This document shows positions 35,776 to 64,000 of a DNA stretch of 64,000 nt, piece after piece. The position numbers and the translations under genes were made by a program. The stretch comes from an uncultured Planctomycetaceae bacterium (GTDB taxonomy: Bacteria; Planctomycetota; Planctomycetia; Isosphaerales; Isosphaeraceae), in assembly GCA_963833985.1 (NCBI GenBank), contig CAWIAD010000002.1:5280001-5344000 (forward strand), read 5' to 3'. Below the pieces are notes generated by a model. The model made no database searches and was not told where the DNA came from. It worked only from the letters and a program-made list of their open reading frames with translations. The stretch's first letter is position 1, and each line of letters opens with the position of its first letter.

Positions 35776-37851
35776 TCAGAACGGCGGTGGAACGGCCGCG
35801 TCTGGGAGCGAGGGAACTTCCCGGCTCGTCAATTCGACATCTCCGTCCAGTGGTGTGCGCAGGCGGATGCCGCGATAATGGGCAATCCGCTGGGGACCCT
35901 CACGGAACCGGCTCTTGCTGAGTTCTGGAATGGCTGCATGGAGGTCGCGACCGAAGGCCGGCTCGTCACCAATGGCGTCGCGGCCTTGCTCCTGGCACCA
36001 GCTTCGCCAGGCGTCGTAGAGTGCCGCGACTGACACCTGTTCACCGGCACCGAGGACACAACGATCGCGCAGAAACGCTCCGATGGGGCTGCCCAGGTCC
36101 TCCATCGCGGCCATGAGAGCGCGGCCCGATTGCGGCTGCAAGAACCGCCCCCGCTCCCTGAGGCGCTGCCAGCCCTCCAGGGCCCAGAGCAGGATGCCCG
36201 GCAGCTCCCGGAGCAACCGTTCGTACAGGCCCGTATCTTCGCGGTCGTAGAACGATCGGGTGAACCGCAGCAGGATGAGCCGGCTCGCCAGGGCCCCGCT
36301 GGCATCACGTAACCGCGGCAGCTCATTGGAGATGAGCACGAAGCGCGTGGGCAGCCGGCCCGTCCAGGCCGGCAAGTGTTTGCGATCGATGGTCTGGTCG
36401 TCCTCGCCGCTGATCGAGAGCAAGCATTCCACGATGGCGGCATTGTCGGGCCGGCTGGAAAGCCGGGCGTCCGGAAAGATGGCCACCGGTTTGTCGATCA
36501 GCACGGACAGCCCGAACGGCCGTGCCAGAGTCGAAAGGGTTGGATTCGCGACGTTATTCGCCCCCACGAGCGCCTTGAGCACCCGCGCGATGGTTCCCCG
36601 GCCCGACCGCTTCGGGCCCACCAGCATGGCGATCTTCTGCTGACGCGTGTCCGTGGTCAGCAGGTAGCCGAACCACTCCTGCAAGCAGGCAATGCTCTCG
36701 ACGTCGTCTTCCCAGATCTGCCGCAGGAACGCCAGCCATTCCGCGGGCTCGCTCGCTCCGGGCACGAAATCGTAGTCCAGGGCGAAGCCGTTGAAGAACT
36801 CCGGCGTCGCCGCCAGCGTGCATGGGCGGCCCTCCACAAAAGAGGGCAGGTGAACTAGCCCGTTGCGTGCTGGCAAGATCTCCTGGACGGGCCATGGTGC
36901 GGCCCCGGCCGCATCCGGGCGGCCCGCCACCCAGGCTGGCTGCCGGGGACACTCGCTGGTGGGCACGAGGACCAGCCCCGTGATGGCCTGGACCACGTCG
37001 CTCACCATGCGCCCGGTGACCGGGATGGGCCGGAGAATCCGCTGGACGCTCGGAGAGCCGGGAGAATCCTCCCGTTTATGAAGGCGCGCTTCCATCTCCG
37101 CCTTGTATAAACGGTCGAATTCGCCGGCGAGGAATTGCGAAAGCCGTGCGCGAACCTCACTCATGGGAAGCGTGCGGTAGGCACATCCATCCCATGAATA
37201 AAACAGATCGCGCCAGTACCGCAGTCCGATCCCTCCCGGAAACGTGAAGTGGGCGTCCAGGAAGAGACGGGCCAGGCGGTGCGGGTTGGTCTCCTGGCCC
37301 ACCGGGCAGACGACGCCAGCGGCCTGGCCCGCGCGCGGCCTGGCTGCGCGGCCGCCTGCCGGCAGGGACGGCGGCCTGCCCGCGGGCGGCGGTTTCCTGT
37401 CTGATCTGAGATATCCCCTGGCGCGATCGTCGGCCGTCTTGTCAGCGCTTCTGAGCTTGTGCTCCAGCTCCTTGGGGCCCCAGGGAGGCAAGCACCGCTG
37501 GTTCCATTCCAGGAGGAACGGCCGGGCCTCGTCGATGGAGAGCCCGAACCCCTTGACGAGCACGCAGGCGACGTGGAAGGTGCGGTCATGGCCGCGCTCG
37601 CCAGAGACGGCGGGGGGAATGCGGGACAGGTAGGTGGCGATTCGCCGCGGCAGGGTGGTCGAGCGGTCATCGTGCCGGAGCGGCCCGGCCGGGGTCTTCG
37701 CCGGGTGGGAACCGGTCTGATCCGGCAAGGCCGGAGTGGGCCGCCGGGTACGAAGCCACGCGACAAGATCGAGAGGCAAGAGGGGAAGGGCAGTTCGTGA
37801 AGCTCCGCCCGGCAGTGGCTCCGGGCGGCTGTTCTCGGGGTGCATGGTCAT
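35776..37851 (-). CDS. P4/D5-family primase C-terminal (PriCT-like) + SF3 helicase protein
   Basis: PPAVSGERGHDRTF...WNQRC.PPW...EL.HK, D5_N-like WLAFL...LQEWFGY, Walker A GPKRSGRGT, ISGED...IDRK, LISNELP, C-terminal LYDAWRSWC. Confidence 0.9.
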   Translation of the reverse strand: MTMHPENSRPEPLPGGASRTALPLLPLDLVAWLRTRRPTPALPDQTGSHPAKTPAGPLRHDDRSTTLPRRIATYLSRIPPAVSGERGHDRTFHVACVLVKGFGLSIDEARPFLLEWNQRCLPPWGPKELEHKLRSADKTADDRARGYLRSDRKPPPAGRPPSLPAGGRAARPRAGQAAGVVCPVGQETNPHRLARLFLDAHFTFPGGIGLRYWRDLFYSWDGCAYRTLPMSEVRARLSQFLAGEFDRLYKAEMEARLHKREDSPGSPSVQRILRPIPVTGRMVSDVVQAITGLVLVPTSECPRQPAWVAGRPDAAGAAPWPVQEILPARNGLVHLPSFVEGRPCTLAATPEFFNGFALDYDFVPGASEPAEWLAFLRQIWEDDVESIACLQEWFGYLLTTDTRQQKIAMLVGPKRSGRGTIARVLKALVGANNVANPTLSTLARPFGLSVLIDKPVAIFPDARLSSRPDNAAIVECLLSISGEDDQTIDRKHLPAWTGRLPTRFVLISNELPRLRDASGALASRLILLRFTRSFYDREDTGLYERLLRELPGILLWALEGWQRLRERGRFLQPQSGRALMAAMEDLGSPIGAFLRDRCVLGAGEQVSVAALYDAWRSWCQEQGRDAIGDEPAFGRDLHAAIPELSKSRFREGPQRIAHYRGIRLRTPLDGDVELTSREVPSLPDAAVPPPF

Positions 37852-37910
37852 CCGCCGGCACGATCAATTCTTGCAGGTCTTTTCAGTTGCCTTGCAAGCG
37901 AGGACGGGGT

Positions 37911-38663
37911 TCATTGGCCTGTTCCCTTACCATCCAGAGTAACCGGACGCCAGGGCCGATCAGGTCTGGAGGAGCCTTTCGCCTTGAGCGTGCCGGGCAA
38001 GCCGATCAGTCGCGCCGGGTTGACCGTGGCGGTGTCAATGACCACCGCGTGATCGTTGTACCGCCGCGCCAGCATCGAGACCGCCTCGGCAACGCAAGCC
38101 CGGTGCGCAGGGTCATTCGGGTAGTCAGGTAAACGGATCAGGACCCAGCAACCGTTCCCGGATCGGCCCCAGAGCGCGGCAGACGCCAGCTCCGGGCAGT
38201 CCGTAAGGATCGCGTCGCGCCGGGCCACTGCTGCCGCCAGCTCCGCGTCGGTGCTGCTGGTGTCCGGGGGGCGTACCGGGTCGATGTCAAGAAAAAGCCA
38301 GCGCAGGCAGGCGATGTTGTCGTCGCGGGTGGTGTGCCGGGCCCGTGCCAGGCGGTGGTCGCAGCGTGCCAGCAGATCGCGGCGCACCGGATTGATGGTG
38401 ACGTATGCCGAGACGCCGCGGAGCCTGCGGGAGTGCGCGATCAATTGCTCCACATCCTCGTACCATCCGGAAATCGTGGCGCCACCCTGATGCAGGCCCA
38501 GCTCCGCCGCGCGGTGAACGTTCCCCCGGCGGTCGAATCCCGCGTGCAGGATACGCAGTTCCGTGCAGCCCACCTCCGGCGCTCGCAAGAGCGACAGGAA
38601 CTCTCGTGTCGCCCCCGGATCGCCCGCGGCAGGCAGCGATGAGGCCGTGTGCAGCGTGTTCAC
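37911..38663 (-). CDS. Stand-alone primase-polymerase (AEP/RepB'-like) domain protein
   Basis: YVTINP, WLFLDIDP (DxD), SGNG, IDTATVNPARLIGLPGT; GTGA overlap with the sigma gene. Confidence 0.7.
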   Translation of the reverse strand: MNTLHTASSLPAAGDPGATREFLSLLRAPEVGCTELRILHAGFDRRGNVHRAAELGLHQGGATISGWYEDVEQLIAHSRRLRGVSAYVTINPVRRDLLARCDHRLARARHTTRDDNIACLRWLFLDIDPVRPPDTSSTDAELAAAVARRDAILTDCPELASAALWGRSGNGCWVLIRLPDYPNDPAHRACVAEAVSMLARRYNDHAVVIDTATVNPARLIGLPGTLKAKGSSRPDRPWRPVTLDGKGTGQ

Positions 38664-39685
38664 GAGAGGCACTTTCTGAACGCCGTGCGCAATTTCTCCA
38701 TGGCGGTTCGCTCGAGCTTGCGGACCAGGTGGACCGAGATGCCCAGGGCCCGGCCGAGGCGGGTATAAGTCCATGGATCCGGGGGAAGAGGCGGCACTGA
38801 GCCCGGCTGCGCATCGGCATCCTGAGGATCGTCCAGGCCGTAACGCCGGCGGATCAGCCAGGCCTCGAGCGGCGTCAGGCTTGCCAGCGCTGCGTGCATC
38901 TCGTCGAGCAGCTCGATCCGCTCGCATTCCTCCTCCGGATTGGAAGGGTCGGCGATGATGTCCTCGAGTGAGATCGGTTCGCCATATTCGTTGATGCCAT
39001 AATACGACGAGCGAGAAATCCGCGACTGGTCCAGAAGCTCGAGCTGGCGGCTAGTCAGCCTGGGCTCGTCGTTGTCCGCGGTGGGAGTGCTCGATGCATC
39101 GACCGGAACCAGGGCGGACTCGCCCGAGCACTGGCGCTGCTCCGCTTCGCGGCGCGACTTGATGCTCAGCCGGAACAGATAATCAGGCATTCGGATGAGC
39201 GAGAAATTGGCGGCCACGGCGCGCTGGATGCTGTTCTTGATCCAGTACATCGCATACGTGGAAAAACGCGTGTTGTGGGTTTCCGGTTCGAACCGCTCGG
39301 CCGCCTTGATGAGACCCTGGGTACCTTCCTGGATGAGGTCTTCGAGAGTGGCCCCGAACGAGTAGTAGCGTCTGGCGATGATGGTGACCAGCCGCTGGTT
39401 CGCCAGGATCAGGGCGTCGCGAGCGGCCAGGTCGCCGGCTTTGACCCGCACCGCCAGCGCATTTTGTTCGGCTGCGGAGAGAATGTCTGGCCGCGTCAAC
39501 GGAGCATATACGGGCCTGGCTACCTGGTGGCTGGCGTCCGCGGTTTCGGCCTGCCCAGCCTGCTCACCGGGCCGGCTGCCATGGGGGCGGCCTTTGGACC
39601 AGAACCGGGCTTTGCGGCGCCTCGCCAACCGCGGCGCCGGCCTCGCGGGATAGGGTTCCGGGCAACCTGTCAACGTTGCGATCAT
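38660..39685 (-). CDS. Sigma-70 family RNA polymerase sigma factor
   Basis: ANQRLV..IARRY, DLIQEG..GLIKAAERF, RFSTYAMYWIK, ISLE, region 4 RRRYGL...LG..LGIS...VRKLE; GAGG RBS. Confidence 0.92.
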   Translation of the reverse strand: MIATLTGCPEPYPARPAPRLARRRKARFWSKGRPHGSRPGEQAGQAETADASHQVARPVYAPLTRPDILSAAEQNALAVRVKAGDLAARDALILANQRLVTIIARRYYSFGATLEDLIQEGTQGLIKAAERFEPETHNTRFSTYAMYWIKNSIQRAVAANFSLIRMPDYLFRLSIKSRREAEQRQCSGESALVPVDASSTPTADNDEPRLTSRQLELLDQSRISRSSYYGINEYGEPISLEDIIADPSNPEEECERIELLDEMHAALASLTPLEAWLIRRRYGLDDPQDADAQPGSVPPLPPDPWTYTRLGRALGISVHLVRKLERTAMEKLRTAFRKCLS

Positions 39686-39737
39686 GTTGATTTCCTCGAC
39701 TATTGCGGGCTGCGCGCCGGGTGTCTTGCTTGGTGAG

Positions 39738-40280
39738 TCAGACCGAGGCCGCCTTGCTCCGATCGCGAGCCGGAACCTGCCAGATGACCCGCAGCCGCCC
39801 GGGTGCGCTGTGGCCGGGCCCGACGCGGACGCTCCAGCGGCCCTCGGCCACGCCCTCGACGGCACTGCGGGCCGTGGGAAAGCTGCGGCTCACCGGTTCC
39901 GCGCCAACATGAGCGGCCCGGCGCACGTACCATCGCCCGGCGATGTGCCCCGCGTGGTACTGCTGAACGAACCGGGGAGTGTAGACGACAAGCTCTTCGC
40001 CGGTGAACCGATCGAGCACCCGCAGGCGGCCGTCGGGCTCGCGCGGTGCGACATGCAGCCGCGAGATCAGGGGATTGTGAATCGGCAAAAGCGTCAACAT
40101 CGCCAGGGCGCCGCGGGACGAGCTCGATGCGCGGCGGGAGCGCCCGCGGGATCGAGGGGCGGGCAAGGCGGGCGCTCCAGCGGGCAGGCCGGTGCCGGCT
40201 CCCTCGGCCGGTCCGGCGGGCGGGTGCGGTGCCGTGGCCGGCCGGGCCGGGCCGAGACGCGATTGTGTAGTGAGCGACAT
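39738..40280 (-). CDS. Hypothetical protein
   Basis: GAGGAGG RBS before ATG 40280, globular-looking C-terminal half. Confidence 0.6.
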   Translation of the reverse strand: MSLTTQSRLGPARPATAPHPPAGPAEGAGTGLPAGAPALPAPRSRGRSRRASSSSRGALAMLTLLPIHNPLISRLHVAPREPDGRLRVLDRFTGEELVVYTPRFVQQYHAGHIAGRWYVRRAAHVGAEPVSRSFPTARSAVEGVAEGRWSVRVGPGHSAPGRLRVIWQVPARDRSKAASV

Positions 40281-40335
40281 GGCCGTGAGCCTCCTCATCT
40301 GGAACAGTGTGAGGCGAGTCTTTCAGGAATTGCGA

Positions 40336-41082
40336 TCAGCCCTGGCGCACGACGGCTGGACCGCCGCGACGAGTCCAGAGCATCGGCACGACTGCCGGCG
40401 GCGAAGCACCCGGGCCTCCCCATGCGGAGGGCACGTCCGCGGCGAGCCGGCGCAGCAACTCGGGAGCGTTGTCGCCAGGCCGCATGGACCGGGCAAAGAC
40501 CTCGAGCGCCAGCGCGGCTTGCTCTCCCCGACCGCTGCCCAGTCGCTTGATCCATGCAAAGGGCCGTGCGTCGTCCTGGAAGGCGAGTTCGGCGACCAGC
40601 TTCAGCGCGGCGATCGAACACTTGCCGTCGCGGCGGACGAGCTCGACGGGAATCGCGCTCCATCTCCAGTCCAGGATGGCTCCGTCGAGCTGGGCTCCGG
40701 TGAGCACGGCGCCGCGGAGGTCGGCCCCCACCAGCCGCGCCCCGGCGAGGTTCGCCTGGCGCAGGTCCGCGCTGCGGAGGTCGGCCTGGCGGAGATCGGC
40801 AAGGGCCAGAGAGGCGCCGCGGAGATCGGCCCCCACCAGCCTGGCGGCCCGCAGGTCCGCCTTCCGGAGATTGACGCGGACCAGCTCGCTGCCGCCCAGA
40901 TCGGCGCCGCGGAAGTCTCCCTCCTCCAGATCGGCCGCCTGCACCTTGATTCCTTTCAGGTCGGCGTAGAGCATCCTCACGCCCCTGGCCACGGCCAGTT
41001 CCAGGGCCTGCGGATAGGTATCGGCCTCCACCATTGCGATCGGCCGCGTACTCCAGCGATGAAAGATCGGGAAAGTCATCAT
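40336..41082 (-). CDS. Pentapeptide repeat protein (phage type)
   Basis: Tandem ADLRG/ADLRQ/ARLVG repeats. Confidence 0.9.
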   Translation of the reverse strand: MMTFPIFHRWSTRPIAMVEADTYPQALELAVARGVRMLYADLKGIKVQAADLEEGDFRGADLGGSELVRVNLRKADLRAARLVGADLRGASLALADLRQADLRSADLRQANLAGARLVGADLRGAVLTGAQLDGAILDWRWSAIPVELVRRDGKCSIAALKLVAELAFQDDARPFAWIKRLGSGRGEQAALALEVFARSMRPGDNAPELLRRLAADVPSAWGGPGASPPAVVPMLWTRRGGPAVVRQG

Positions 41083-41336
41083 GGCATGAGCCTTCTTGAA
41101 AGCAAACCGGCGAGAATCGGCTTCGGCGCGTACCATCTCCGTGTCAGGCTGGCGGGCGGCGCCCAGTCTGAATGGTTTCATCACGACTTACTGACGTGGT
41201 GGACTGAGAATGTGTTTGCGGCCCGGTGCCGGAGCCCCGGCAGGCGATGGCGGGGCTCCGGCTCGCACACGGGCTCACCGGGACAGCGTCGTCCCGGGTC
41301 GTCGACCTGCAAGGCGAGCAGGGCGGGAGAAAGCGA

Positions 41337-41549
41337 TCAACCGGGACCGACGGGCCCCGAAGGCCTGATCGGCGGCTGGACTATCGGCGGATCATCGGTC
41401 GGCAGGTCGCCCGGATCGTCCTCGGGGTCCGGCAGCGGCTCGTCGCCGGGCGGCGCGACCACCGTATGCGCGACCAGACTGCTGAGGCTCAGCTTGGTTT
41501 CCAGCGCGTCAAAGGCGCTCATTCCCTCGATGACAAACATGCGGCACAT
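41337..41549 (-). CDS. Small Pro/Asp-rich hypothetical protein
   Basis: GAGAGGGG upstream of ATG, co-oriented with the cluster. Confidence 0.45.
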   Translation of the reverse strand: MCRMFVIEGMSAFDALETKLSLSSLVAHTVVAPPGDEPLPDPEDDPGDLPTDDPPIVQPPIRPSGPVGPG

Positions 41550-41908
41550 CAGGATGCCCCCTCTCTCGAAGTTGTTGTTCCCGGTTCCGAAGAACCAGCC
41601 TTATGAAACAATCAGGCCACCGGCCTGGTTGTCTCCGTTACCTCCCGCTCACTGCAACTGTCTCCCGTATAATCTGGATATTGTGTTGTGAAGTTGCAGG
41701 AAAATGGGAATTCTTTGGAAGATTTTCCGCAGAGGGCTGAACCAGCCCGATCCGCCGGGATTGCCCCGGCAGCAAGGTCCATCAGTGCCTGGCGTGTGCC
41801 AGGTCCCGCAGGAGAGTGGGAGCGTTGATTTGCTGCGCTCTTGCAAGTCAGGGAGTGGCTTGCGGCAAAAGTGACGTGCCCGGAGTATGCCACTCCCATC
41901 AACGCGTC

Positions 41909-42202
41909 TCAGCCGGCGTCGCGCGACAGGTCCCCACGCAGAATACGAGCGACCCGTTCGCATGCGGCGATATACATCTGGTCGAACGCGAACTGGACTC
42001 GTGCGCTCGGATCGGTCTCGTGGTTGCGAAGCTGCAAGAGCGGAACGACGGCCTTCAGCCAGAGCCGGTTCTGAACGTCCGCGTCAGTGGTATCGAGACA
42101 CAGGTCCGCGGCGCCAGGGTCTTCTGCCTCGGTCCGGGCAGCTGCCGCTTCGGTGTCGGCATCATCGGATGGATCGGGAGTACTGGATGCTTCGGGATTC
42201 AT
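41909..42202 (-). CDS. Small hypothetical protein
   Basis: Co-oriented ORF, acidic N-terminus and helical C-terminus. Confidence 0.55.
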   Translation of the reverse strand: MNPEASSTPDPSDDADTEAAAARTEAEDPGAADLCLDTTDADVQNRLWLKAVVPLLQLRNHETDPSARVQFAFDQMYIAACERVARILRGDLSRDAG

Positions 42203-42248
42203 GGCCGTCTCACTTCTGGGCGATGAGGACACGCGCCGGGCAGCGGGC

Positions 42249-42629
42249 TCAGTACAGCGCAGCGGTGCGGAGGCAGGAGATGCAGTCGTGGTGGTTCACC
42301 AGGCCCCCGCGACCGCGCCCCTGCCCGCAGTGCGCCAGGCCTCCGCAGCCGCAATCGGTCTCGGACTCCCGGTACGGGCACGCGTACATCTGGTTGAGAA
42401 TGCTCCGCATTTCCGCCGCGTTGGGAAGGTCCGGAGAGGGGGACTTCGATCTGGGGTCATCGCCCGGCACCAGCGCTCCGGGTGTGAGAAGCGGGAGGTA
42501 GGCCGGGTTGTAAGCCGGGTGGTCCGGATCCACGAGCTCGCAGAGCCGTGGTACGTCGGTCCCCGCACAGTGCAGGCCCGGCGCGGTCGGACAGTTCGGG
42601 CACCGCGCCGGCTCAAGGGCGAGTTTCAT
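42249..42629 (-). CDS. Cys-rich hypothetical protein (10 Cys; CPNC, CGC, CISC)
   Basis: Translation; position at the end of the tail module. Confidence 0.7.
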   Translation of the reverse strand: MKLALEPARCPNCPTAPGLHCAGTDVPRLCELVDPDHPAYNPAYLPLLTPGALVPGDDPRSKSPSPDLPNAAEMRSILNQMYACPYRESETDCGCGGLAHCGQGRGRGGLVNHHDCISCLRTAALY

Positions 42630-42654
42630 CGCGTGTGTCTCGGAAGGCTCCGCT

Positions 42655-43413
42655 TTACTGCGTGATCGTGAATGTGCTGTAGCCGTTGGCCCAGAGTACC
42701 GGGCAGATGTTGCTGTTGATGGAGTACTGAAGCAGAAAGGGACTGCAACTGTAACTCGAAAGCAGCAGCCCGAACGGGTCGGACCCCGGGCTGGTGCAAC
42801 TCTGGCTCTGGCCCCCGGGGCAGGTGCCGGAGAGGAAATACGTCACGTTGAACTGAGTTCCCCTCCCCGGGCACAAGAGCGAGAAGACCAGCTGGTTGGC
42901 GCAGGCCGAGATCCACTGGCCCGGGGGAACGAACGCGAGCGCGGCGGACCCGTTGCCCACCAGGTTGTTCTTCCAAGAGATTGTCAGATTCTGCCTGGGA
43001 AGGTTGCACGGGGAGCAGTTCAGCGAGGGTGTGGACCCGCCTGACTCGGCCACCCACCGGCCACCGACAGCCAGCGCCGGAAGGATCTGGCCGACCTGCG
43101 GTGGGGCGTTGCCGATGACCACCACCGGAATCTGGCGGGTCGCGTCCACCACGAATGCCGGCGCCGCTCCCTCCCGCTCCGTGCCACCAATCCGTACCGG
43201 GTTGACCAGGTAAACATGCTTCGTGTTCGAGGGCATGGCACCGCCGTTTGTCACCTGGCCCAGCAATCGGGGCGTACCCCGGGGCAGGCGTGCATGAGCG
43301 GCCAGTGCAACGGCCGCGAGACCGGGAGCAGGCGAGGCGGGCTCGCTTCGTTCCTGCCAGCGCAGCCGCAGCAGGCGCGTGGGATCAAGCTTCTGGCTGG
43401 ACCTGCCGATCAC
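42655..43413 (-). CDS. Putative tail tip protein; N-domain paralogous to 43429..43755, C-domain with 8 Cys
   Basis: Translation, synteny after the hub-like gene. Confidence 0.6.
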   Translation of the reverse strand: MIGRSSQKLDPTRLLRLRWQERSEPASPAPGLAAVALAAHARLPRGTPRLLGQVTNGGAMPSNTKHVYLVNPVRIGGTEREGAAPAFVVDATRQIPVVVIGNAPPQVGQILPALAVGGRWVAESGGSTPSLNCSPCNLPRQNLTISWKNNLVGNGSAALAFVPPGQWISACANQLVFSLLCPGRGTQFNVTYFLSGTCPGGQSQSCTSPGSDPFGLLLSSYSCSPFLLQYSINSNICPVLWANGYSTFTITQ

Positions 43414-43428
43414 GAGTGGTCCCTCAAT

Positions 43429-43755: not shown

Positions 43756-43795
43756 GAGTGCTTCACCAGGGTATCGAAGAAGGATCCAGGGCGGT

Positions 43796-47510: not shown

Positions 47511-47541
47511 TCCAGAAGATCACCCATGGGTTTGGCGGCCA

Positions 47542-47916: not shown

Positions 47917-47978
47917 ATCTCCACTTGCTCCCATTCGATTCGGCCGCGAGATCGGGCGGAGCCGACAAGCCTCAAGCG

Positions 47979-55800: not shown

Positions 55801-57236
55801 AGCAGTGTGTTCCAGGTGCTGCCGCCGTTGGTCGAGTAGTAAGTCCAGATATCCGCATATCCGGAGTTGCTCTGGTTCGGCTTGACCTGGATCCTGATGC
55901 GCCAGGTCACCCCGACAGCCGGTCCCGCGGTAGACCCTGCGCCGGCGTCCGAACCGTTCTGCACCAGGCGGATTGACCCGACGCCGTCGGCGGGATGGAA
56001 CCGCAGGTAGAGCTGGTTCGAGCCGCTACCCGACGACATGAAGATCATCTGGGCGTACTCAGTCGTCACGGCCGAAAGATAGGCGAGGTCGAACTGGATC
56101 TCCAGCGGTGTGATGGGCGAGCCCGAGATGGCAGGCAGCGCGCCCTGCCAGAGCGACTGGGTATCAGGAGCCGCTGCCTGGAAGGTGCAGCCATTACCGT
56201 CGAGCTGGATGGCCCCGCCGGTGGGCGCTGACCACCCGCCGCCAGACTGGCCGCTGAGAAGCGTGTTGCTGATGTGGCCAGAGATCAAGATGCCCGGGGC
56301 GCCTGTGAAGCTGTCCTGAAGATAGATCCCCGTGGAGATGAAGCTCACAGCGCCCGGGTTGGCCAGGGTCCCGGAGTTCGTGAACGTCCAGGTGATCGTG
56401 TCCGCCGACAGCGGCGTGAACTGCCAGTTGATGGAGCTCTGGGTGCCGTCGCAGGAAATCACGATCGGACTGAAGAGCTGCGCGCCAGAGGGCGTGGCCG
56501 TGATGGTGCCGGTGAATGCTGACCCGGCGGGCGTGAAGTTGATCGTTGCCGATGCGGTCGTTTTCTGATGCCCGCCGCCTGGCATCGCGACCGAGTATCC
56601 GGTGGCCTGTGAAAAGCTCGGGACGTCCTGCACGACCAGGCCGACGATGTGTGTGCCGGTCGTGGCGGTTGCGGCGGTGGCGGTGTTCGCCACGAAGCCC
56701 ACGTTCACGGGCGCGGTCGGGGTGGTTGTGGTGTAGGAGAACAGCGGGTTCCACGGACCGCCGTTGATCGTCGCGTACCTGGCCGTGAACGTCGTGTTGC
56801 CGCCAGAGGTCGAGACATCGACCTTGATCCACCACTTCTGGCCGACCGCGGGAGAGAGCCCGGTCGACGCCTTCGAGGTTGGACCGTTGTAGAGGCCGAA
56901 GCCGCTGCCATCGGTGAACATCAACTTCCAGTTGTTGGTCGTCGGCGGCTCGGTCGAGAATAGCGTGACGCCGGTCTGGCTGGGGTTGACCGCGGTCATG
57001 CGGTAGACCGCGAAGAGCACCTCGAAGTTGACCGTTCCGGGCATCGCGGCCGTGCTGAGGATGCTGCTGGGCGCGGTCGTGGACAGATAGACCCCGCCGC
57101 TGCCGTCGAGCGCCAGGCCGTTGCCTCCGTTGGAATGGTTGCTGTCGTTGGGCCAGGCGGCGCCGCTGTCCGAGGTGTGCGCCGAGAGCAGCGTGCCGGA
57201 CGTCCCGCTGAAGGTATCATTCAAATAAACTGCCAT
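52887..57236 (-). CDS. Large virion spike/fibre: two lectin-like beta-sandwich repeats plus a clan GH-A-like catalytic domain
   Basis: About 1450 aa; MRWLD, NIP..ATD.YV, IYLELSDEPWN, GYEGG motifs; poly-Pro linker and basic tail. Confidence 0.65.
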   Translation of the reverse strand: MAVYLNDTFSGTSGTLLSAHTSDSGAAWPNDSNHSNGGNGLALDGSGGVYLSTTAPSSILSTAAMPGTVNFEVLFAVYRMTAVNPSQTGVTLFSTEPPTTNNWKLMFTDGSGFGLYNGPTSKASTGLSPAVGQKWWIKVDVSTSGGNTTFTARYATINGGPWNPLFSYTTTTPTAPVNVGFVANTATAATATTGTHIVGLVVQDVPSFSQATGYSVAMPGGGHQKTTASATINFTPAGSAFTGTITATPSGAQLFSPIVISCDGTQSSINWQFTPLSADTITWTFTNSGTLANPGAVSFISTGIYLQDSFTGAPGILISGHISNTLLSGQSGGGWSAPTGGAIQLDGNGCTFQAAAPDTQSLWQGALPAISGSPITPLEIQFDLAYLSAVTTEYAQMIFMSSGSGSNQLYLRFHPADGVGSIRLVQNGSDAGAGSTAGPAVGVTWRIRIQVKPNQSNSGYADIWTYYSTNGGSTWNTLLPVNPFTVLPTSLPSAYGVGPYFQATPVTATTGIHVGNVVVQDPLPPPPTCQISRAYVGTSGKTIVFFFSTISGNTPVNPTALNYAPSIFQNGNPIGPGVNAWVTGYHQCAVLSLQSGQQINPGDTVTISTPTSWMTCGAGSVNAVTNLPISNYTGMSCFGTDSLAKTIRPGLNFSNSGASNGTLYNIPKNWRYRLSPSEAGSTNTVDGYPTRMLHPTETLSILDYTGMSNNIDSTNYPGIAGVWAIGFDDNAFGTNSASQLAMVSLNAAQCTVTPVASVSNSGSNGVGQFYAFTVSAPAGATSASLPIGLQWTCPSQTPNISNLWILAPGDFSYTPGTPLSFDRSQPYALSGQFLADLPNGIGSMRWLDSTDTFGGMSNKTEAWELHQLTDFSWNNSLHNTYTIGYTAARPLSVATSPYVYGDFLGSPWTPMVAGSAVTLGAAVLDAPAVGTLETITLSAIPTDLFAGILLQIGPTEKLRVKSISGNTAVVERGSSGTTPVTHAAGEPITAMNRWAWTSLSNLGGVNTQVVEFVTQNPHGLKSGLQIAPGGSFPQFTTTDGTSFNITGGSQPVWVTGPNSFFQLWYNTSTSTTTLTQTYTLNPATNTTYFAMPDIGFPPEFTAMVTGSVGGCNLHRNIPLIATDSYVYAMANKDLANFPAGRKIYLELSDEPWNFAQIQYGQITLISRFAGYSSPYAWYVIRTGQIRAIYRNVFGSRAGEIQALINCQYSAPGNAQMQLAQAQANSVTIDALGLAPYIDPDNSAASVAAWNSADIQQAIDLWIHDLYYNTQGFQAFMAGNASTLAAYNAAMGTSAGFWGYEGGFETGVPAAAGNVTPRSRDMPYDPNWLIIEKDMYALFQSAGFPGINLYSYSIYYSYSNNWGLKHWPGQKPGKGDGSNGGFVNRRCLATPGQTYTKAATTNQDAQCDAVRLQALNEWMAQTPPPPPPPPPPAPTSRTRKLFVPFRKRWR

Positions 57237-57342
57237 GGTTCCCGCCAGGGCAAAGCCCTGCACCTACGTGTTGGGGCCCTTGCGAGGCCGTTGGAACAGG
57301 CTCTGCGCCACGCCGCGCGATGGGGCCCGAAGTCCTTGCACA

Positions 57343-58308
57343 TCATTCCTGGCTGGTGGCAACGGCCTGCAGCGCATCGACCAGCGCGGGAGGAGTACCG
57401 TCCGCCAGGATGGTCAGGACGGTCGTGTTCGATTCCTCGCCCACGCCGTTGAAGGCGCGGACCGCCAGCGCGTAGCGTTGCCCGGCGGTCAGGCCGGTCA
57501 GGTTCGCCGTGAAGCAGCCGAACCGCCCGCTGGACCAGGGTACCGTCGCGACAGCCGTCGTATATTCTGGCAGCCCGCCGGTACCCACGTATACGTGAAA
57601 GCCAGTCGGCTGCCTGAGCGGGATGCCGCAGGGACAGCTCCACTCGGCTCGGACGATGCCGCCAGCCGTCGAGAATGCTCGCAAGCCCAGCGGAGCGGGT
57701 GGCACCTGCGTGATGTCGTTGCCGCCGGCGTCGAGCACCAGCTCGACCACCGCATCGATATTCTGCTCTTCCAGGCCGGTGCTCGGGTTGAAGGCCCTCA
57801 CGCCAAGCTTGTAGCTTCCCGGAGCGGTCAGGGTTCCACTTGTCCATGCGGGCCGTGTAACCATTGCCACCGCGCTGGCGTAGCTGATCGGATCGCCAGT
57901 ACCGGAGTTGATGTAGATATGGTAGGCGAGTGATCCCTGGTTGTCCACACCGCCCAGGGCCATCCCGCCGCCCGCGGCGACAGCGTGTGCCGTATGAGCG
58001 GCCGCGGCGCCGGCCAGGGCGGAGCCGCCCCCGCAGGAGACCGAAGCCGCATGGACCGGTAACGCCGTGCCGGCGATGGCCAGTCCGCCACTCGCGGTCG
58101 CACTGGCGTTCTGCCGGACACCCAGCCCCGACGAGCCGAGAGCCACGCCGCCCGACGGCCAGACCACCAGGTGGGTCACGCCGCTGAGGCCCTGAAGCAG
58201 GACCGGGCCGCCAAGGCCCTGCGTGATGAGATTGGGCGCCACCGGGGCAGACCACCCCTGGGTGACGACCTGGCCGCCAAGCAACCCCTGTGCAATGATG
58301 AGGCTCAT
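57343..58308 (-). CDS. FN3 domain virion-associated protein
   Basis: YKLGVRAFN, YALAVRAFNGVGEE, N-terminal xTQGL repeats; TGATG coupling. Confidence 0.7.
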   Translation of the reverse strand: MSLIIAQGLLGGQVVTQGWSAPVAPNLITQGLGGPVLLQGLSGVTHLVVWPSGGVALGSSGLGVRQNASATASGGLAIAGTALPVHAASVSCGGGSALAGAAAAHTAHAVAAGGGMALGGVDNQGSLAYHIYINSGTGDPISYASAVAMVTRPAWTSGTLTAPGSYKLGVRAFNPSTGLEEQNIDAVVELVLDAGGNDITQVPPAPLGLRAFSTAGGIVRAEWSCPCGIPLRQPTGFHVYVGTGGLPEYTTAVATVPWSSGRFGCFTANLTGLTAGQRYALAVRAFNGVGEESNTTVLTILADGTPPALVDALQAVATSQE

Positions 58309-59093
58309 CACGACCTCTGCGTCGGGGTCGAGGCGCTATCGAGCGTGAAGCTTCGGACGACCGTCGCGCCGTCGCCCGCATAGAGCGTCAGCGTCGTGCC
58401 CGAGAGCACCCACCGCCCAAAGCCCTGGGCACGGGCGGCGTTCAGGGCGTCACCAACAGTCTGCGCGGTGTTGGAGGTTGGAATGGACTGTGTCAGGTTC
58501 AGGCTGTAGCCCGTCTTGTCGTTGTTGGTGGTGACGGTCACCCCCGCGGTCACCGAGGCCACCCCGCCGGCCACGTTTCCCCCCACATTCCCCGTCACCG
58601 AACCCACTGCTCCGGTCACACTGCCAACCGAGCCAGTGGTGCTGAAGGCCTGGCTGGCGGCCAGGCTGTAGCCCGTCTTGTCGTTGTTGGTGCCCACCGT
58701 CACGGTCCCTGAGACCGGCACCGCGCCTGCGCTGGGGCTGATCTGCCCCGAGCCGGTGCCGACCGTGAGTAACCCCCCCGCGGCCGCGGGCGCGGCGGTC
58801 GGAAGGTTCTCGAAAGTCACGGTGATGGGCAGGATGACAATGCCCGCGGTCGAGGACCTGCCCGCAAGCGTGCCCACCTGGCACTGCGCCTGCGCGGCCG
58901 TGACTGTTGCCTTGTAGACACCCGGGCAGCTCGCGGCATCAACTTCCGACGCCGTGGGGATGGTGGTGGTGTCCTCGGTGCCGTCGTGTACCCACCGAAG
59001 CGCGTGGTTCGCCGCGTCGCCCGTCTTGCCCACGTTGTTCATCGTGTCCCAGGCAAGGTATTGCAGCGTGACTGTCTGGCCGTAGCTGGGCAT
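58308..59093 (-). CDS. Putative virion structural protein with GSV repeats
   Basis: GGGAGG RBS; GVY Ig-like N-domain, TNNDKTGYSL x2, VGSVTG repeats. Confidence 0.7.
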   Translation of the reverse strand: MPSYGQTVTLQYLAWDTMNNVGKTGDAANHALRWVHDGTEDTTTIPTASEVDAASCPGVYKATVTAAQAQCQVGTLAGRSSTAGIVILPITVTFENLPTAAPAAAGGLLTVGTGSGQISPSAGAVPVSGTVTVGTNNDKTGYSLAASQAFSTTGSVGSVTGAVGSVTGNVGGNVAGGVASVTAGVTVTTNNDKTGYSLNLTQSIPTSNTAQTVGDALNAARAQGFGRWVLSGTTLTLYAGDGATVVRSFTLDSASTPTQRS

Positions 59094-59140
59094 GACCGTC
59101 CCTCCCAAAACATGTGTGCGGTACGCAGGCGGCGAGTCGA

Positions 59141-59975
59141 TCACACGAACTGCTTGAAGAACTCCCAGATCCATAAGGCCGCAGGCACGTCAGCCACGAG
59201 CGGGCCGCCCTTGCCCCCGTCCACGGCGATTCCACCGGGCCACTGGTGGCCACCGCCCGGTAGCTTGTAGAGCACCACCGGGTGTGTGCCGGGGTACGTG
59301 CCGCACTCGTAGTCCGTGCCCGTCGTGACCTGCGTGGGACCGCACTTGTTGACCGTGGTCCAGGCGCCTATGACCTCGGGGATCGGGGTGTGGAAGCAGT
59401 GGTCGATCGAGTGGGCACCGTAGCCACCATTGAACGGGCAGTTCTGATCGAGTATGCCGTGGAAGTGGATCACGGGCATCGGATTATGCGGAGGCGGCGT
59501 CATGATGCCCATATCGCCCGAAACCGGACCAATCGCCGCAACCAACCCCGGCGCCATGCGGGCCAGCTGGTAGCAGAACATCGCGCCGTTGGAAAAGCCC
59601 GTGGCGAAGATGTTCTTGCGGATGATCGGGAACCGCTTTTGCACGTCGTTCACCACCGCTCTGGTGAACTCCACGTCATCGACGTTGTTGCGCGGGCGCA
59701 CCACAGCACGAACCCGCGTTCCAATCGAGCAACGATGTCGCGCCCGGATTCTCGTTGGTTCCGTTGGGGCAGACCAACAGGAATCCGTTGTCGTCCGCGA
59801 CCTTCACAAACCCGCTCTGGCGCTCGAAGCCCGCACCATGGCCGGCGCCGCCGTGAAACCCAAGAACCACCGAGAGCGGAGTGGTCCCGTCCCAGCCGGC
59901 CGGTGTATGGACGATGTAGCTGCGTGTCCTGCCACCCTTGGTCGTCAACTCGTAACTTGGATCCTGAAGGGCCAT
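59141..59975 (-). CDS. PHB depolymerase / LpqC-like esterase, frameshift near 59695
   Basis: FHGGAG, WNAGSCCG, DDVEF, GFSNG, HGILD, GGGHQWPG. Confidence 0.88.
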
Positions 59976-59990
59976 TGAAAACTCCGGCGG

Positions 59991-60659
59991 CTACTTGGCA
60001 CGGCCGCAATTGAAAAGGTGAACGGGTACGATTGGAATGTCACGTACAAGCAGGTTTCCGATGTGCGTGCCGGCCGTGGCGGTCGCGGTGCCGCCGCCGT
60101 TTGGATTGATGACCGGTCCGACGTTCGGCGTGCATGTGACGCCCGATGCCGTGTAGGACAGGAGCGACGTCCAGGGGCCAGAGGTTCCCGCCGTCGCATA
60201 TTTGCACGTAAACGTGACGTTGGCTCCGCTGTAGGTCACGTCGATCTTGATCCACCACTTCACCCCGACCGCCGGCCCGAGCGAGGTTGACGCCGCCAGA
60301 CTCGGGCCATTATAGATCCCGAATCCGGACCCGTCCGTGTAATACAATTTATAGTTGTTTGTTGAAGTGGGTATCGTGTTGAGAATGAGGATGCCAGTCT
60401 GAGCCGGCGGGAGCGCCGTGAGACGCTCGATCCAGTAAACAATTTCAAAGTTGCTGGTTGCCGGCATGACGGCAGAACTCAGATTGCTTGCCCCGGAGGT
60501 TCCCGACGAATTGAAGATGCCGCCGTTGCCGTCCAGGGCAATGACGTTTGAGTTTCCGTGGTTCGCGTCGTTCGGCCAGGTGGCGCCGCTGTCTGCCGAA
60601 TGGGCGGTCAGGAGTGTGCCGGCGGTCCCGGCGAACGTATCAAGCAGGTAGACGCTCAT
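59991..60659 (-). CDS. Single lectin-like beta-sandwich protein, paralog of the N-domain of 52887..57236
   Basis: Colinear similarity visible by eye; GAGG RBS. Confidence 0.8.
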   Translation of the reverse strand: MSVYLLDTFAGTAGTLLTAHSADSGATWPNDANHGNSNVIALDGNGGIFNSSGTSGASNLSSAVMPATSNFEIVYWIERLTALPPAQTGILILNTIPTSTNNYKLYYTDGSGFGIYNGPSLAASTSLGPAVGVKWWIKIDVTYSGANVTFTCKYATAGTSGPWTSLLSYTASGVTCTPNVGPVINPNGGGTATATAGTHIGNLLVRDIPIVPVHLFNCGRAK

Positions 60660-60707
60660 GAAGGGTTCCTCGTGGGCAGGCGGGAACGCCCGCGCAGATC
60701 GACTTCG

Positions 60708-61163
60708 TCACGCGTTCTCGAAGACCGGCGTGAGGCTGAGCGTATCACCGGAGCCGAGCGTGCGCGGCGTGGCGAACGCCTCGGCGCAGATCAGGTTGCC
60801 GGACGTGGCACCGATGATGAAGTAGCCGTAGACCGTGTCGCCGGTCGTGCCGCAGGTCCACACTTGCGGAGCGTTGCCGTACTGGCTGTGCCCGACCTGG
60901 CTGCGGCCGGTCCACGGAGGGCTGCCCGAGGGGGGTTGGCTGACCGGCGTGCTCCACGTGGTGCTGGAGATGCCGCGGGTGAGCGTCATGCGGCTGTAGC
61001 CGGAAAACACGGCCTCATGCGCCGTGTAGGTTGCGGCTGTGTCGGTCTCGCTGGGCGTGATGTTCGTGTTGAACAGCCCGAGCTGCCAGTTCTCCAGAGC
61101 GCCGCCGGCCAGCAAGTCGGTCAGGAGCTGGACGTCGCCTTGATGAGGAACAAGAAGCGCCAT
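60708..61163 (-). CDS. Putative phage virion structural protein
   Basis: LGLF, E...SGYSR, TVYGYFI, PRTLGSGDTL pattern recalled from small phage structural proteins; GAGGTG RBS. Confidence 0.65.
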   Translation of the reverse strand: MALLVPHQGDVQLLTDLLAGGALENWQLGLFNTNITPSETDTAATYTAHEAVFSGYSRMTLTRGISSTTWSTPVSQPPSGSPPWTGRSQVGHSQYGNAPQVWTCGTTGDTVYGYFIIGATSGNLICAEAFATPRTLGSGDTLSLTPVFENA

Positions 61164-61171
61164 GATCGAAT

Positions 61172-61852
61172 TCACCTCACGATTCGTGTACAGAACCAGT
61201 TGGTCGCTTGCGTGTCCGAGCCGCTGGTTCCCCACCGAAGTTGCAGCCGCGCGAGAACCTCGGATAACTCTTGTTTGATCTGAGTGAGCTTGAGCGCGAA
61301 GTCACCTTCACTGCCGCGCGTCTCGCTTGCGTAGCGCTGGGACAGCACGGTGAGCACACAGGCCTGGCGGAGATCGCGCAGATCGTAAACGTCGGCCGGC
61401 GTTCGGCCAGGGATGTTCGGGTCAATCCAGTACCGCCGGTTGAGGTCGAAGCTGGCCTCTTCGATCTGGGGGTCGAAGGTGGCGATCAGGAATTCAACCC
61501 CGGTGAGCCCCGCCGCCGGCGCGGGAGACTGGCCGACGCTCAGAGCGGCCCCCAGACGACGGAGCACAACGCCGCTGTCGGAGGCGCTGTCCACAGCCAG
61601 TAGCTCGCCTCCCCCCTTGAAGACCGTGTTCGGCTTCCTGAGCAGGACCACGTGCTGCTGCGTCACTCCCGCGGCGAGGAAGTCGACCGATGGCGAGCTC
61701 AGGACCCACGGCGATCCGGCGGCGAAGGCGCCGTCGCTGCCGTAGGCCAGCTTCTGCCAGTCCGGGCAGAGCATCGAGAAATCGCCACCAGCACGGATGG
61801 CGATGTTCTCGTCGGTAGCATAAACAGTCGTCAGAGTTGCTGGAGCAGACAT
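61172..61852 (-). CDS. Putative head-tail connector/adaptor-like protein
   Basis: N-terminal YAT..I, IEEASFDLN, LRQAC.L helical pattern; position downstream of the capsid gene. Confidence 0.5.
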   Translation of the reverse strand: MSAPATLTTVYATDENIAIRAGGDFSMLCPDWQKLAYGSDGAFAAGSPWVLSSPSVDFLAAGVTQQHVVLLRKPNTVFKGGGELLAVDSASDSGVVLRRLGAALSVGQSPAPAAGLTGVEFLIATFDPQIEEASFDLNRRYWIDPNIPGRTPADVYDLRDLRQACVLTVLSQRYASETRGSEGDFALKLTQIKQELSEVLARLQLRWGTSGSDTQATNWFCTRIVR

Positions 61853-61953
61853 TGGTGGTGCTCGCCTTGTGGTTTTGCGGTGTCGGGCCGAGGGCCGGAT
61901 GAGGGGAGCGGGGCTGGGACATGCAGTCGGCCCTGCCCCTGCCTCTTGCCTGT

Positions 61954-62702
61954 TCAGGGCAGCACCCAGCGCTGGAGCGGCATGCCGACGGCGGTCATGC
62001 TGCTGCTCACGGCCGCGGGCAAGTTGTTGACAACCAGGCTGCAAGACTCGCCCAGGGCCTGGTTCCAGAGCGCCACGACTCCCTGCCAGCTTGTATGCTG
62101 ACCGATCACCATGCGGCGCTCGATCGGATAGCCGGAGAGGTAGTTGCTCAGGTCTTCACTCAGGCGCTCGAGCGTCTTTTCCGTGATCGGCAGCGGCAGC
62201 AGTGAGTAGATCCGCTGCACATGGGCCCCGGCGCCTGTGGTGTTCTGGTTGGGGGTCGACTGCGTGGGCTGGTCCGCGGGGATGGCGTACGACAGGGCGA
62301 ACGTGGTGCCCGTCACGCCGCTGGCGTACAGCGTCTCGGTGCCACTGGGCAGGTTCGGGTCGGTGAGGTAGATGTTCATCGCCTGGCAGCCGGCGGGGAG
62401 GCTGGGCAAGGTGACCGTCGCCAGGTGCGCGCTGTCGGCCTGTGTGAACTGGCGCTCTCGCTGGTGCCGAGCGTGGTCTCGCCGAACGGGTCGACGAACG
62501 TGTAGGCCACGAAATACGTTCCTACCGGCAGGCTGGAACCGGCCGACGTGATGGACACGGTGGCCTGGGTGGTCGGGTTCGCCTTGGCGACGTTGGCGGC
62601 GATCAGGTTGTCGAGCACGATCTTCAAGCCGCCCGTCTTGTACTGCGCCCAGGTTGTACCGGAGGGCGTGATCACAGGCGGAACATAGGTGTCTCGGGCC
62701 AC
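61954..62702 (-). CDS. Hypothetical virion-associated protein, frameshift near 62430
   Basis: GSSLPVGTYFVAYTFVDPFGET...LPAGCQAMNIY Ig-like pattern across two ORFs. Confidence 0.65.
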
Positions 62703-62705
62703 GGG

Positions 62706-63035
62706 TCAGCCCCTCCGTTTCTTCTCGGTTTTGGTGTGGGTGTTCGTCTCGGTGAGGGCGAAGGCCGGCGCCGGCAGTTCCAGCGCGGTGGTGACTTCCA
62801 GGATCGCCGCATCGGCGCCTTCCAGCGCCAAGGCCAGCGAGTCCCTGGTCGCGACGACGTGTTCCAGTAATTGCCGCTGGCTGACCGGATCAAGCCGAGG
62901 AAGCTGGCCGAGTGCGTCCTGCATCTGAGACAGATGCCAGATCTGCCGGCAGCGGCCTGACTGGTGCAGGTTACGCCCGGTCTCCGCGGCGACTCTCTCG
63001 ATGAACGGCCAGATGCCGGGGAACGTGTATGACAT
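62706..63035 (-). CDS. Hypothetical protein
   Basis: 109-aa co-oriented ORF. Confidence 0.65.
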   Translation of the reverse strand: MSYTFPGIWPFIERVAAETGRNLHQSGRCRQIWHLSQMQDALGQLPRLDPVSQRQLLEHVVATRDSLALALEGADAAILEVTTALELPAPAFALTETNTHTKTEKKRRG

Positions 63036-63139
63036 GTCTCTCAGTTGCCATTGGCCGGTGGCCGGTTAGAACCAGTGGGCAGTGGGCAGTGGGCCATGAG
63101 GTATTGGGTACGGACCCTGGCACACTGCCCACTTCATGG

Positions 63140-64000
63140 TCAGGCGGCCGCGAACGCGGTGACGCCGGTGACCCAGGCGTGATGGGCTTCGTTATCCAGC
63201 TCGATGGCGCCTTCCATGATGATGTCGCCCTCGAACGCATCGCCGCGGCTGCCACGGGGCTTGTCAATCATGGCGCGCTTGAGGCGGATGCGGACCTCGG
63301 CGTCGGACAGGCAGATCGCGGTGCCGGGCCGCAAGAGAGGGGCAGGGATGATGCTGATGCCCGAGAGGAAGGGCGCTTCGAAGAGGTCGATCGGCGTGCC
63401 GAAGACGTTCGAGCCGGCCGGAATCCGCATGGCCGCGTGGCCCCAGACCGCAAAGCCGGAAAGGAAATCAGTGCTGACCACCAGCACGCTCGGGTTGCCG
63501 CCTCCGTTGAAGCAGGCCTGGATCGTGTCGCGCACCAGGTCCGAAGGCTTGTAGGCCGCGGCGTTGATCGGCGCGCTCACGTTATTGCTCTGGACCAGCG
63601 TCGAGACTCCCTTCATGAGCGGCCGGCTCGTCGAGGCCGAAAGGGGCACGCCCTTGCCGTAGTAGCAGGCGCTCTCGAAGTCGTCCATCACGTGCTGCAT
63701 CGCCAGCATGCGGTCGCGGTCCAGCGGGGTGGCGAAGCCGGTGACGTAGTTGCTGTCGGCTTGCAGGGCGCCGCCCACCTGGTAGGCATGCTGCACGGTC
63801 TGGCAGTACTGGGTGACCGCCTGGGGAATGCGGCTGACGCTGGCGACGTTCAGCTCGGCACCGGTGCGCGTGTTGCTCACCAGGTAGGCCGTCGCACCGC
63901 TGGCGTGGCTGGCCGCGGTGGTGCCCGCGTAACCAGGCTGCACGCTGATGGTCGTCGCGCTGGTACCGGCCGAGCCGGCGTCGGGCGTACCGGTGACCAG
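63140..64000 (-). CDS. Major capsid protein, SU10/DUF5309-like (HK97 fold), 5' truncated by window
   Basis: TQYCQT....QVGG, DFESACYYG, R.LMKGV, KPRGSRGDAFEGDIIME..IEL.NE.HHA match the family pattern as recalled; frame open to 64000. Confidence 0.8.
   Translation of the reverse strand: MVTGTPDAGSAGTSATTISVQPGYAGTTAASHASGATAYLVSNTRTGAELNVASVSRIPQAVTQYCQTVQHAYQVGGALQADSNYVTGFATPLDRDRMLAMQHVMDDFESACYYGKGVPLSASTSRPLMKGVSTLVQSNNVSAPINAAAYKPSDLVRDTIQACFNGGGNPSVLVVSTDFLSGFAVWGHAAMRIPAGSNVFGTPIDLFEAPFLSGISIIPAPLLRPGTAICLSDAEVRIRLKRAMIDKPRGSRGDAFEGDIIMEGAIELDNEAHHAWVTGVTAFAAA

Follow-up and report, generated by a model that had tools for sequence, protein, structure and literature searches.

According to PMC9662315, gene transfer agents (GTAs) are defined by six features: proteins that come from tailed phages, full endogenization, largely vertical inheritance with co-diversification, packaging of mainly random host DNA, a head that cannot hold its own locus, and delivery of DNA into other cells. 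That paper and PMC10883770 describe the RcGTA-like agents (Rhodogtaviriformidae) as residing in the chromosome and passing vertically, some lineages having lost them or carrying pseudogenes. PMC9662315 also states that Bartonella henselae particles have been reported as tail-less or short-tailed, and bioRxiv 10.1101/2025.02.11.637232 describes how the heads of cf-PICIs (phage-inducible chromosomal islands that form capsids) take tails from phages. The 2022 GTA classification paper does not mention planctomycetes. Our literature search, with supplements and most subscription journals outside its scope, found no description of the head-tail gene cluster analyzed here, and the Zavarzinella prophage in PMC7947584 is unrelated. 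The cluster lies in a stretch of 64,000 nucleotides (nt), hereafter the window, from an uncultured Planctomycetaceae bacterium of the family Isosphaeraceae (assembly GCA_963833985.1, contig CAWIAD010000002.1, positions 5,280,001 to 5,344,000; G000:C2:5280001-5344000 in our numbering), whose genome, G000, comprises 10.16 Mb in two contigs. Judging from its genes, the cluster is probably a host-kept viriform, with a probability of about 85%.

In gene direction the cluster begins with a helix-turn-helix (HTH) gene, two small membrane proteins, a candidate small terminase, the large terminase, portal, scaffold, capsid and neck candidates. It continues with a variable spike block, terminator-like, tube and chaperone genes, a tape-measure slot, distal-tail genes, the hub and two tip genes, and ends with small open reading frames (ORFs), a pentapeptide-repeat protein, a sigma-70 factor, a primase-like domain and a D5-type helicase (Table 1). 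Between 35776 and the end of the window all called cluster genes are encoded by the minus strand, and their run extends to about 70300 in extended coordinates, which carry the window numbering past 64000 (a position in our locus file L001 is the extended coordinate minus 60000). Scaffold, portal and terminase follow the window end at 64388-68518, and host genes lie beyond the end of the run. The initial annotation, which described a single co-oriented gene run with host-like codon style, a very short tape-measure slot and deviant replication motifs, was confirmed as a whole. Its order of capsid, tail and sigma factor stands, but the tail genes do not lead directly into the sigma factor, four small ORFs and the pentapeptide-repeat gene lying between 42655 and 39865, and the run is not uninterrupted, a membrane protein (50010-51775) and an esterase (59141-59975) having been inserted.

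Like RcGTA, the cluster is compact and is arranged as terminase, portal, capsid, neck, tube, chaperone, short tape measure and hub, with a small tube protein; like the RcGTA-like agents as a group, it sits in the chromosome, is passed on vertically and has been lost or pseudogenized in some lineages. Unlike RcGTA, it has an SU10_MCP capsid, its own sigma factor and tail-less variants, and it belongs to a different phylum. The comparison with RcGTA drawn at the outset does not extend to sequence: tube and hub profiles and the capsid gave no RcGTA match among PDB sequences, the RcGTA particle included, and the RcGTA chain 6tba_8A ranks 40th for the hub model, with Z 6.9. BaGTA (Bartogtaviriformidae) resembles some copies of the cluster in having structural genes beside phage-derived replication genes. 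Here, in contrast, the replication pair is absent from many copies and the helicase has arginine in place of the Walker A lysine; a dispensable pair with this substitution does not support the Bartonella-type run-off coupling that had been suggested. Of the six defining features of GTAs, the cluster shows the three that can be read from genomes: it encodes tailed-phage-derived proteins (capsid, portal, scaffold and terminase matches, and the hub fold), is fully endogenized on the genomic side (fixed flanks, no integrase and no attachment (att) sites), and is mostly vertically inherited and co-diversified with its hosts, with partial conflict at deep nodes. Locus length ranges from about 8 kb (genus g56) to 35 kb (G000), and the smallest locus could fit in its own head.

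Temperate phages of the same host family have head, neck, tube, chaperone, hub and tip genes that are homologous to those of the cluster and ordered largely as they are, and two of the prophages have a C1-type peptidase near the terminase. They differ from the cluster in their tyrosine integrases, in having DnaB or other early genes, in the greater length of their tape measures and in their long branches in the trees. Five of them (G079:C18, G080:C114, G085:C3, G057:C2 and G098:C7) have tyrosine integrases, four over the Pfam cut-off and one under it; the prophage copies sit among many small ORFs, and all but that of G085 are extra copies. DnaB or replication-O genes were found in G058, G098 and G057 when 97 chosen proteins were scanned, and the prophage tape measures are of 497-924 amino acids (aa), the one read (G079) resembling an ordinary helical tape measure. 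The G085 prophage also carries dpdA, for deazapurine DNA modification (L044:14939-15721, Pfam E 3e-88). The integrase and att repeats of a prophage are absent from the resident cluster. Nor is it a tailocin or contractile injection system: its head genes are the best conserved, and there is no room for a sheath gene, the terminator and tube genes being 51 nt apart.

The chromosomal sites of the cluster are fixed. Our comparison set consisted of 63 contexts of 3 to 62 kb, the low-GC G014 being compared by tblastn, and gene order is the same wherever the contig reaches. In the type A loci, which include that of G000, an M32 carboxypeptidase gene lies downstream in nine of ten full contexts from four genera, and those carriers for which an rpoB row was available group as a single clade (support 0.999). 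In type B, the cluster has EgtD/PFK/S4 or Trm112/PSP1 genes as neighbors (18 contexts, 12 genera), and ahead of the terminase a small HTH gene was detected in 12 contexts. The type B site of G000 is empty, with EgtD and Trm112 62 nt apart and 1 Mb from the cluster. Either an old type B copy gave way to a new capture, or a single copy relocated; the terminase data fit both. A quick terminase tree suggested separate captures of the two types, but an approximately unbiased (AU) test with 29 of 75 rows and groups named post hoc does not reject one clade (p 0.31).

Integrase probes matched in a single context of the 63, that of G085, which is also a tree outlier. The claim that the cluster is integrase-free holds in G000, where the nearest Pfam tyrosine integrase is approximately 570 kb away and the nearest serine recombinase, a multi-copy 626-aa element, is approximately 20 kb past the right edge with host genes in between. 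Copies of this element of about 626 aa stand at G000:C2:5370342 and 10 other sites, 11 copies with identical score. There are no tRNA genes in the 64-kb window, and a repeat scan found no att-like pair bordering the cluster. A 15-nt exact repeat joins 33131 and 73417 (extended), within host genes and outside the cluster edges, and is treated as chance.

Inheritance and selection were compared across the loci. The terminase, portal and capsid tree of 45 genomes shares 22 of 42 splits with that of rpoB, against a maximum of 2 in 500 shuffles, and all nine multi-genome genera are monophyletic in the head-gene tree. The ratio of nonsynonymous to synonymous substitution (dN/dS), obtained by a simple counting method from 22 non-independent species pairs, is well below 1, being 0.03-0.26 for the capsid (21 pairs), 0.05-0.32 for the terminase (16 pairs) and 0.12-0.31 for the hub (8 pairs), and no gene pair exceeds 0.64. 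Cluster dS is equal to or lower than that of the neighboring M32 gene in two of three pairs, and in the third its values lie on both sides of it. Purifying selection acts on phages as well, and the weight therefore lies on low dN/dS between copies at one integrase-free locus. As a genomic claim, the domesticated GTA-like system on an SU10-type capsid proposed in the initial annotation is supported: the locus is vertical, fixed, selected and free of integrase. The fixed, inherited and maintained head-tail genes suggest an undescribed DNA-packaging particle, possibly a GTA.

Several lineages have dispensed with the tail. The locus of genus g56 (five of five genomes) consists of terminase, portal, scaffold, capsid, two neck genes and the terminator-like gene, followed by host genes, and the tube-to-hub block is also missing from g54 (4 contexts), g50 (2 contexts), G041, G054, G022 and G023. 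Tube profiles found nothing in eight of eight tail-less genomes tested and matched both of two controls; the hub profile found nothing in five of five, with a positive control. At several of these loci a beta-helix or pectate-lyase-like/Gp80 protein occupies the place of the tail block. The Walker A, Walker B and nuclease aspartates are invariant in 19 of 19 terminases, tail-less lineages included, and the terminase dN/dS of tail-less lineages is 0.05-0.22; such intact, selected terminases point to DNA packaging rather than an empty compartment. The terminator-like gene kept without tube or hub would be a pointer to borrowed tails or a head spike. Like cf-PICIs, the tail-less loci have head, terminase and neck genes without a tail. 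Whereas cf-PICIs, which package DNA of their own and cross between species, possess an integrase module and a replication module, the tail-less loci have neither, follow the host tree, and extend from terminase to terminator between host genes, with integrase probes negative.

The system is largely confined to the family. Among 73 other family genomes with a completeness of at least 85%, the capsid was found in 55, mostly as one match; one or more prophages and some matches that are frameshifted or incomplete are counted in this tally. Its identity is graded by genus, at 75-78% in g52 (8/8), 48-52% in g54 (5/5) and 51-52% in g56 (5/5). With three candidates scored per genome, the terminase profile gave matches in 46 of 57 family genomes, in six of them to part of the protein only, and in none of 343 genomes from 24 other families of the class; the hub profile had no match in 397 genomes of the phylum from outside the family. 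Most of the named records that carry the terminase belong to Isosphaeraceae or to planctomycete bins without a classification, and cultured Aquisphaera, Paludisphaera, Tundrisphaera and Tautonia are among them. Near-full terminases (47-61%) were also seen in bins labeled Mycobacteriaceae, Acidobacteriaceae, Geminicoccaceae and Kuenenia (L277, L302, L331, L333 and L334), which may reflect mislabeling, misbinning or true phage spread. A Singulisphaera plasmid record (L310) carries a terminase of the same family; related phage modules thus occur on plasmids too.

The prophage and broken matches within the capsid tally are among several points that weigh against the main reading, a host-kept viriform that works as a GTA. 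The capsid was not found in 18 of the 73 genomes, including three of three near-complete g55 genomes. The species tree is that of one gene, rpoB, and 5 of 25 strong head-tree splits conflict with it, or 2 of 23 without G085, which carries an integrase where its tail genes end, and G042, whose contig ends early. The patristic correlation of the capsid alone is 0.16, within the shuffle range. The integrase check reaches both ends in about 20 contexts, many being 3-20 kb long. Purifying selection alone does not separate the locus from phages, and host-like G+C content at third codon positions (GC3; r 0.92 for the capsid in 44 genomes) was discarded as evidence of domestication, prophage copies tracking host GC3 as closely. 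Decayed remnants occur in G003, G006 and G011, the G011 terminase having two stops. In G000 itself, the conserved portal, 244-aa and 263-aa genes are frameshifted, and the type A cassette of a membrane protein, a papain-like peptidase and a 74-aa protein is found nowhere in the genome. The tail-less forms have no evident means of injecting DNA, and all of the evidence for the system is genomic.

Host genes of G000 are also frameshifted, with frame changes at 7 of 62 loci, and so the three cluster breaks in approximately 4600 aa are no clear excess (P about 0.12). The G000 copy may be intact, the breaks being assembly error, or may be starting to decay; the case rests on cleaner relatives and not on this copy. 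Host genes left of the cluster (28737-29969, 30048-32228 and 32535-34126) are frameshifted relative to G004, suggesting assembly indels or local decay.

The same evidence bears on what else the locus could be. If it were a cryptic prophage remnant drifting to loss, its conservation would be that of past phage selection. The frameshifts and missing cassette of G000, the remnants in three congeners with the stops in the G011 terminase, and the degenerate tape measure would fit; however, whole capsid and terminase genes have dN/dS of 0.03-0.3 at dS 0.2-1.2 between species at the same locus, the G000 breaks do not clearly exceed the host-gene background, and the seven-gene head module is kept in all five g56 genomes, which together make such a remnant very improbable. 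We give still less credence to a family of active temperate phages or satellites with repeated integration at favored sites. True same-family prophages do exist, the terminase tree places phage-like rows between types A and B, and IMG/VR holds 32 contigs with near-full terminases, but the resident loci have no integrase, the genera are monophyletic, and two of the closest IMG/VR contigs, L181 (HlyIII) and L194 (UvrA), carry the same host flanks. These two and other IMG/VR contigs, with the resident cluster and its host flanks, nest among resident copies in the terminase tree, and by their gene content the two look like chromosome pieces filed as viruses.

The alternative of most substance is a domesticated particle with another job: DNA-filled decoys, killing particles, or an anti-phage device that hampers the assembly of related phages and soaks up their tails. 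All of the genomic evidence for domestication fits it equally, the tail has been lost in several genera with the head and terminator-like gene kept, and close prophage relatives reside in the same genomes. PBSX of Bacillus packages host DNA without transferring it, a precedent on the same side. Nevertheless, tailed copies keep the tube, the chaperone frameshift and the hub under purifying selection, which fits delivery; the missing sheath slot argues against a contractile killing device, and the Pfam matches of the cluster include no toxin or defense domain (PADLOC was not searched). We consider another job unlikely, though credible. On the genes available, a working gene transfer agent seems to us somewhat the better bet.

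How a host-kept viriform of this kind would have arisen and worked can be outlined. Ancestors of the family would have captured a module from a temperate long-tailed phage, which then lost its integrase and most early genes to become a host locus building DNA-filled particles. The operon would be switched on in some cells by the sigma factor in type A, or by the small HTH gene in many type B copies, and terminase and portal would load chromosomal DNA into the SU10-type head. Attachment to kin would be by a very short non-contractile tail or, in tail-less lineages, by a head-borne spike, and the cassette of peptidase and small membrane protein would release the particles. The packaged DNA would be mainly that of the host, because the locus cannot excise and the replication genes are dispensable. 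The fullest version of this proposal, a GTA new for the phylum that arose by one or two captures from a still-active phage family and whose heads, in several tail-less genera, deliver by a spike or by borrowed prophage tails, is decidedly doubtful.

Table 1. Features of the cluster in window coordinates, or in extended coordinates where so marked
Feature	Position	Strand	Basis or remark
Two small membrane proteins and HTH gene	to ~70318 (extended)	-	
Candidate small terminase	68454-68807 (extended)	-	label inferred
Large terminase	66929-68518 (extended)	-	phrog_2
Portal	65238-~66883 (extended), frameshift near 66530	-	phrog_145
Scaffold	64388-65134 (extended)	-	phrog_206
Major capsid protein, SU10_MCP	63140..64000, gene starts 294 nt past window end	-	Pfam PF17236 E 7e-41
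Gp80-like, 226-aa, 244-aa (frameshifted near 62460) and 109-aa genes	60708..63035	-	
Head-tail adaptor candidate, 226 aa	61175-61852	-	label inferred from position
Variable spike/fiber block: 1458-aa protein, FN3/PKD protein, 261-aa and 222-aa genes, frameshifted esterase	52887..60659	-	
Tail terminator-like protein	52414..52869	-	Atlas 0.94-0.95, Phage_tail_U/terminator families
Tail tube protein, 138 aa	51946..52362	-	position and Atlas features 0.93-0.95
Inserted membrane protein gene(s), outside conserved core	50010..51775	-	slot empty in relatives
99-aa gene and tail assembly chaperone with programmed -1 frameshift	49088..49945	-	CCCAAAA at 49276-49270
Degenerate tape-measure slot, Pro/Ser/Ala/Gly-rich	47979..48908	-	last ~35 aa alone common to relatives
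Distal-tail-like gene (124 aa) and Ig/FN3-like gene (230 aa)	46818..47982	-	weak phrog_31, Pfam Ig_J
Tail-tip gene, 263 aa in relatives, frameshifted in G000 near 46530	45968..46758	-	
Baseplate hub, gp27/Tal/VgrG-N fold with large insertions	43796..45934	-	predicted model, mean predicted local distance difference test (pLDDT) 56.7
Two paralogous tail-tip genes (108 and 252 aa)	42655..43836	-	conserved after hub
Pentapeptide-repeat protein and four small conserved ORFs	39738..42629	-	
Sigma-70 factor	38660..39865	-	Pfam Sigma70_r2, r4
Stand-alone primase-polymerase-like domain	37911..38927	-	motif reading
PriCT-like and D5/superfamily 3 (SF3) helicase, accessory	35776..37851	-	phrog_6088 E 4e-54, DUF5906, Pox_D5

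The capsid gene is single copy in G000, and a PDB sequence search with it gave 9in6 as the sole match; searches with the terminase, tube and hub profiles gave nothing useful. Capsid residues ~67-144 (L001:3140-4294) weakly match tail-protein profiles, which suggests that the region may be an inserted surface domain, and capsid dS lies below that of neighboring genes in several species pairs, hinting at possibly high expression. In codon adaptation, 37 cluster ORFs range from the 2nd to the 96th percentile of 3314 host ORFs, with the capsid at the 96th, the portal at the 89th and the terminase at the 78th. No sigma-70 consensus promoter was found in the head region. Tandem repeats of 7 nt stand just downstream of the capsid gene (L001:3068-3099) and, inverted, at 13052-13191 in a host intergenic region 10 kb away.

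Matches in the spike block are phrog_1101 (E 1e-4), fn3 and Abhydrolase_2, and in relatives the block includes LamG, beta-helix, pectate-lyase-like and Gp80 domains. The tube and terminator labels come from position and from Atlas feature matches, which are leads, the tube match, to phage tube families, being on a minority of members; the distal-tail label of the 124-aa gene is likewise one of position. DNA similar to the 50010-51775 insert occurs in G006 and G011. Genes of a surface-glycan type stand as insertions at varying positions in type A clusters, with this membrane protein in G000, a GT2 glycosyltransferase in g52 (L022:4568-5524) and, labeled by eye, a transferase-like gene in G008 and the g33/g47 clusters (L010:18732-19511).

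In 14 of 16 chaperone homologues the CCCAAAA heptamer leads into a conserved -1 frame some 60 codons long. A chaperone with a -1 frame extension is the G/GT arrangement of lambda. In G057 (L031:12941-13926) and other type B copies, the place of the frameshifted pair is taken by an in-frame G+T fusion of 179 aa and, after it, a paralogue of 148 aa with G alone. The tape-measure slot is, as first described, short, and it is degenerate, with a body not shared with relatives; the G000 and G004 slot proteins are rich in Pro, Ser, Ala and Gly, and only their last ~35 residues are shared. Across resident loci the slot ranges from none (G061) to 521 aa (G048), the top overlapping prophage sizes, and the cluster would have a very short tail. 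The hub model, compared with structures by VIA-align (Foldseek was also run), has a top Z of 16.9 over 252 aligned residues at a root-mean-square deviation of 3.6, and all 33 chains with Z>=8 are baseplate, tail-tip or VgrG chains; the fold does not tell contractile from non-contractile tails. The tail-tip paralogues of 108 and 252 aa match no Pfam or PHROG family.

The sigma gene is present in all ten type A copies with full context and is a candidate activator of the cluster. The pentapeptide and small-ORF block persists beside the M32 gene in capsid-negative relatives. The peptidase, 74-aa protein and HTH genes have no Pfam or PHROG family beyond weak matches; the 74-aa protein has one clear hydropathy segment, and "holin" and "lysis cassette" are guesses for these genes.

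The primase and helicase occur together at the locus in G000, G007, G077 and G081, and by coordinates near the hub in G008, G051, G070, G079 and G080. The pair is missing from six of ten full-context type A loci (G004, G013, G078, G049, G068 and G048) and from every type B copy examined, and where present its dN/dS is 0.19-0.27. The primase-like protein, by its motifs a putative archaeo-eukaryotic primase (AEP), has no Pfam or PHROG match. Both proteins deviate from consensus, as had been noted, with GPKRSGRGT at Walker A (K to R) and SGNGxW at primase motif II. Arginine (GRGT) occupies Walker A in eight of eight cluster-type copies (the context of G069 being unverified), versus lysine (GKGT) in three of three off-cluster homologues read, in which primase and helicase are fused as proteins of 800-990 aa and not split as in the cluster. 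Replacement of the Walker A lysine by arginine usually spares binding and impairs hydrolysis. The change of histidine to tryptophan in primase motif II was rejected as cluster-specific, one off-cluster homologue having tryptophan and one tyrosine. The pair would appear to be a tamed accessory rather than a run-off replicon.

Recognized GTA groups are few, and the cluster, if it is one, would be a family-wide and independently captured system. Graded stages would then be present together with the parent phages: full loci with sigma factor and primase, tails without a tape-measure body, heads only, decayed copies and empty sites. With such stages, the way in which a phage turns into a GTA, and the reason for it, could be tested both comparatively and in cultured strains. 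Resident loci are meanwhile being filed as viruses in IMG/VR. In our judgment, the cluster is also a possible native DNA-delivery tool for a group of bacteria with few genetic tools.

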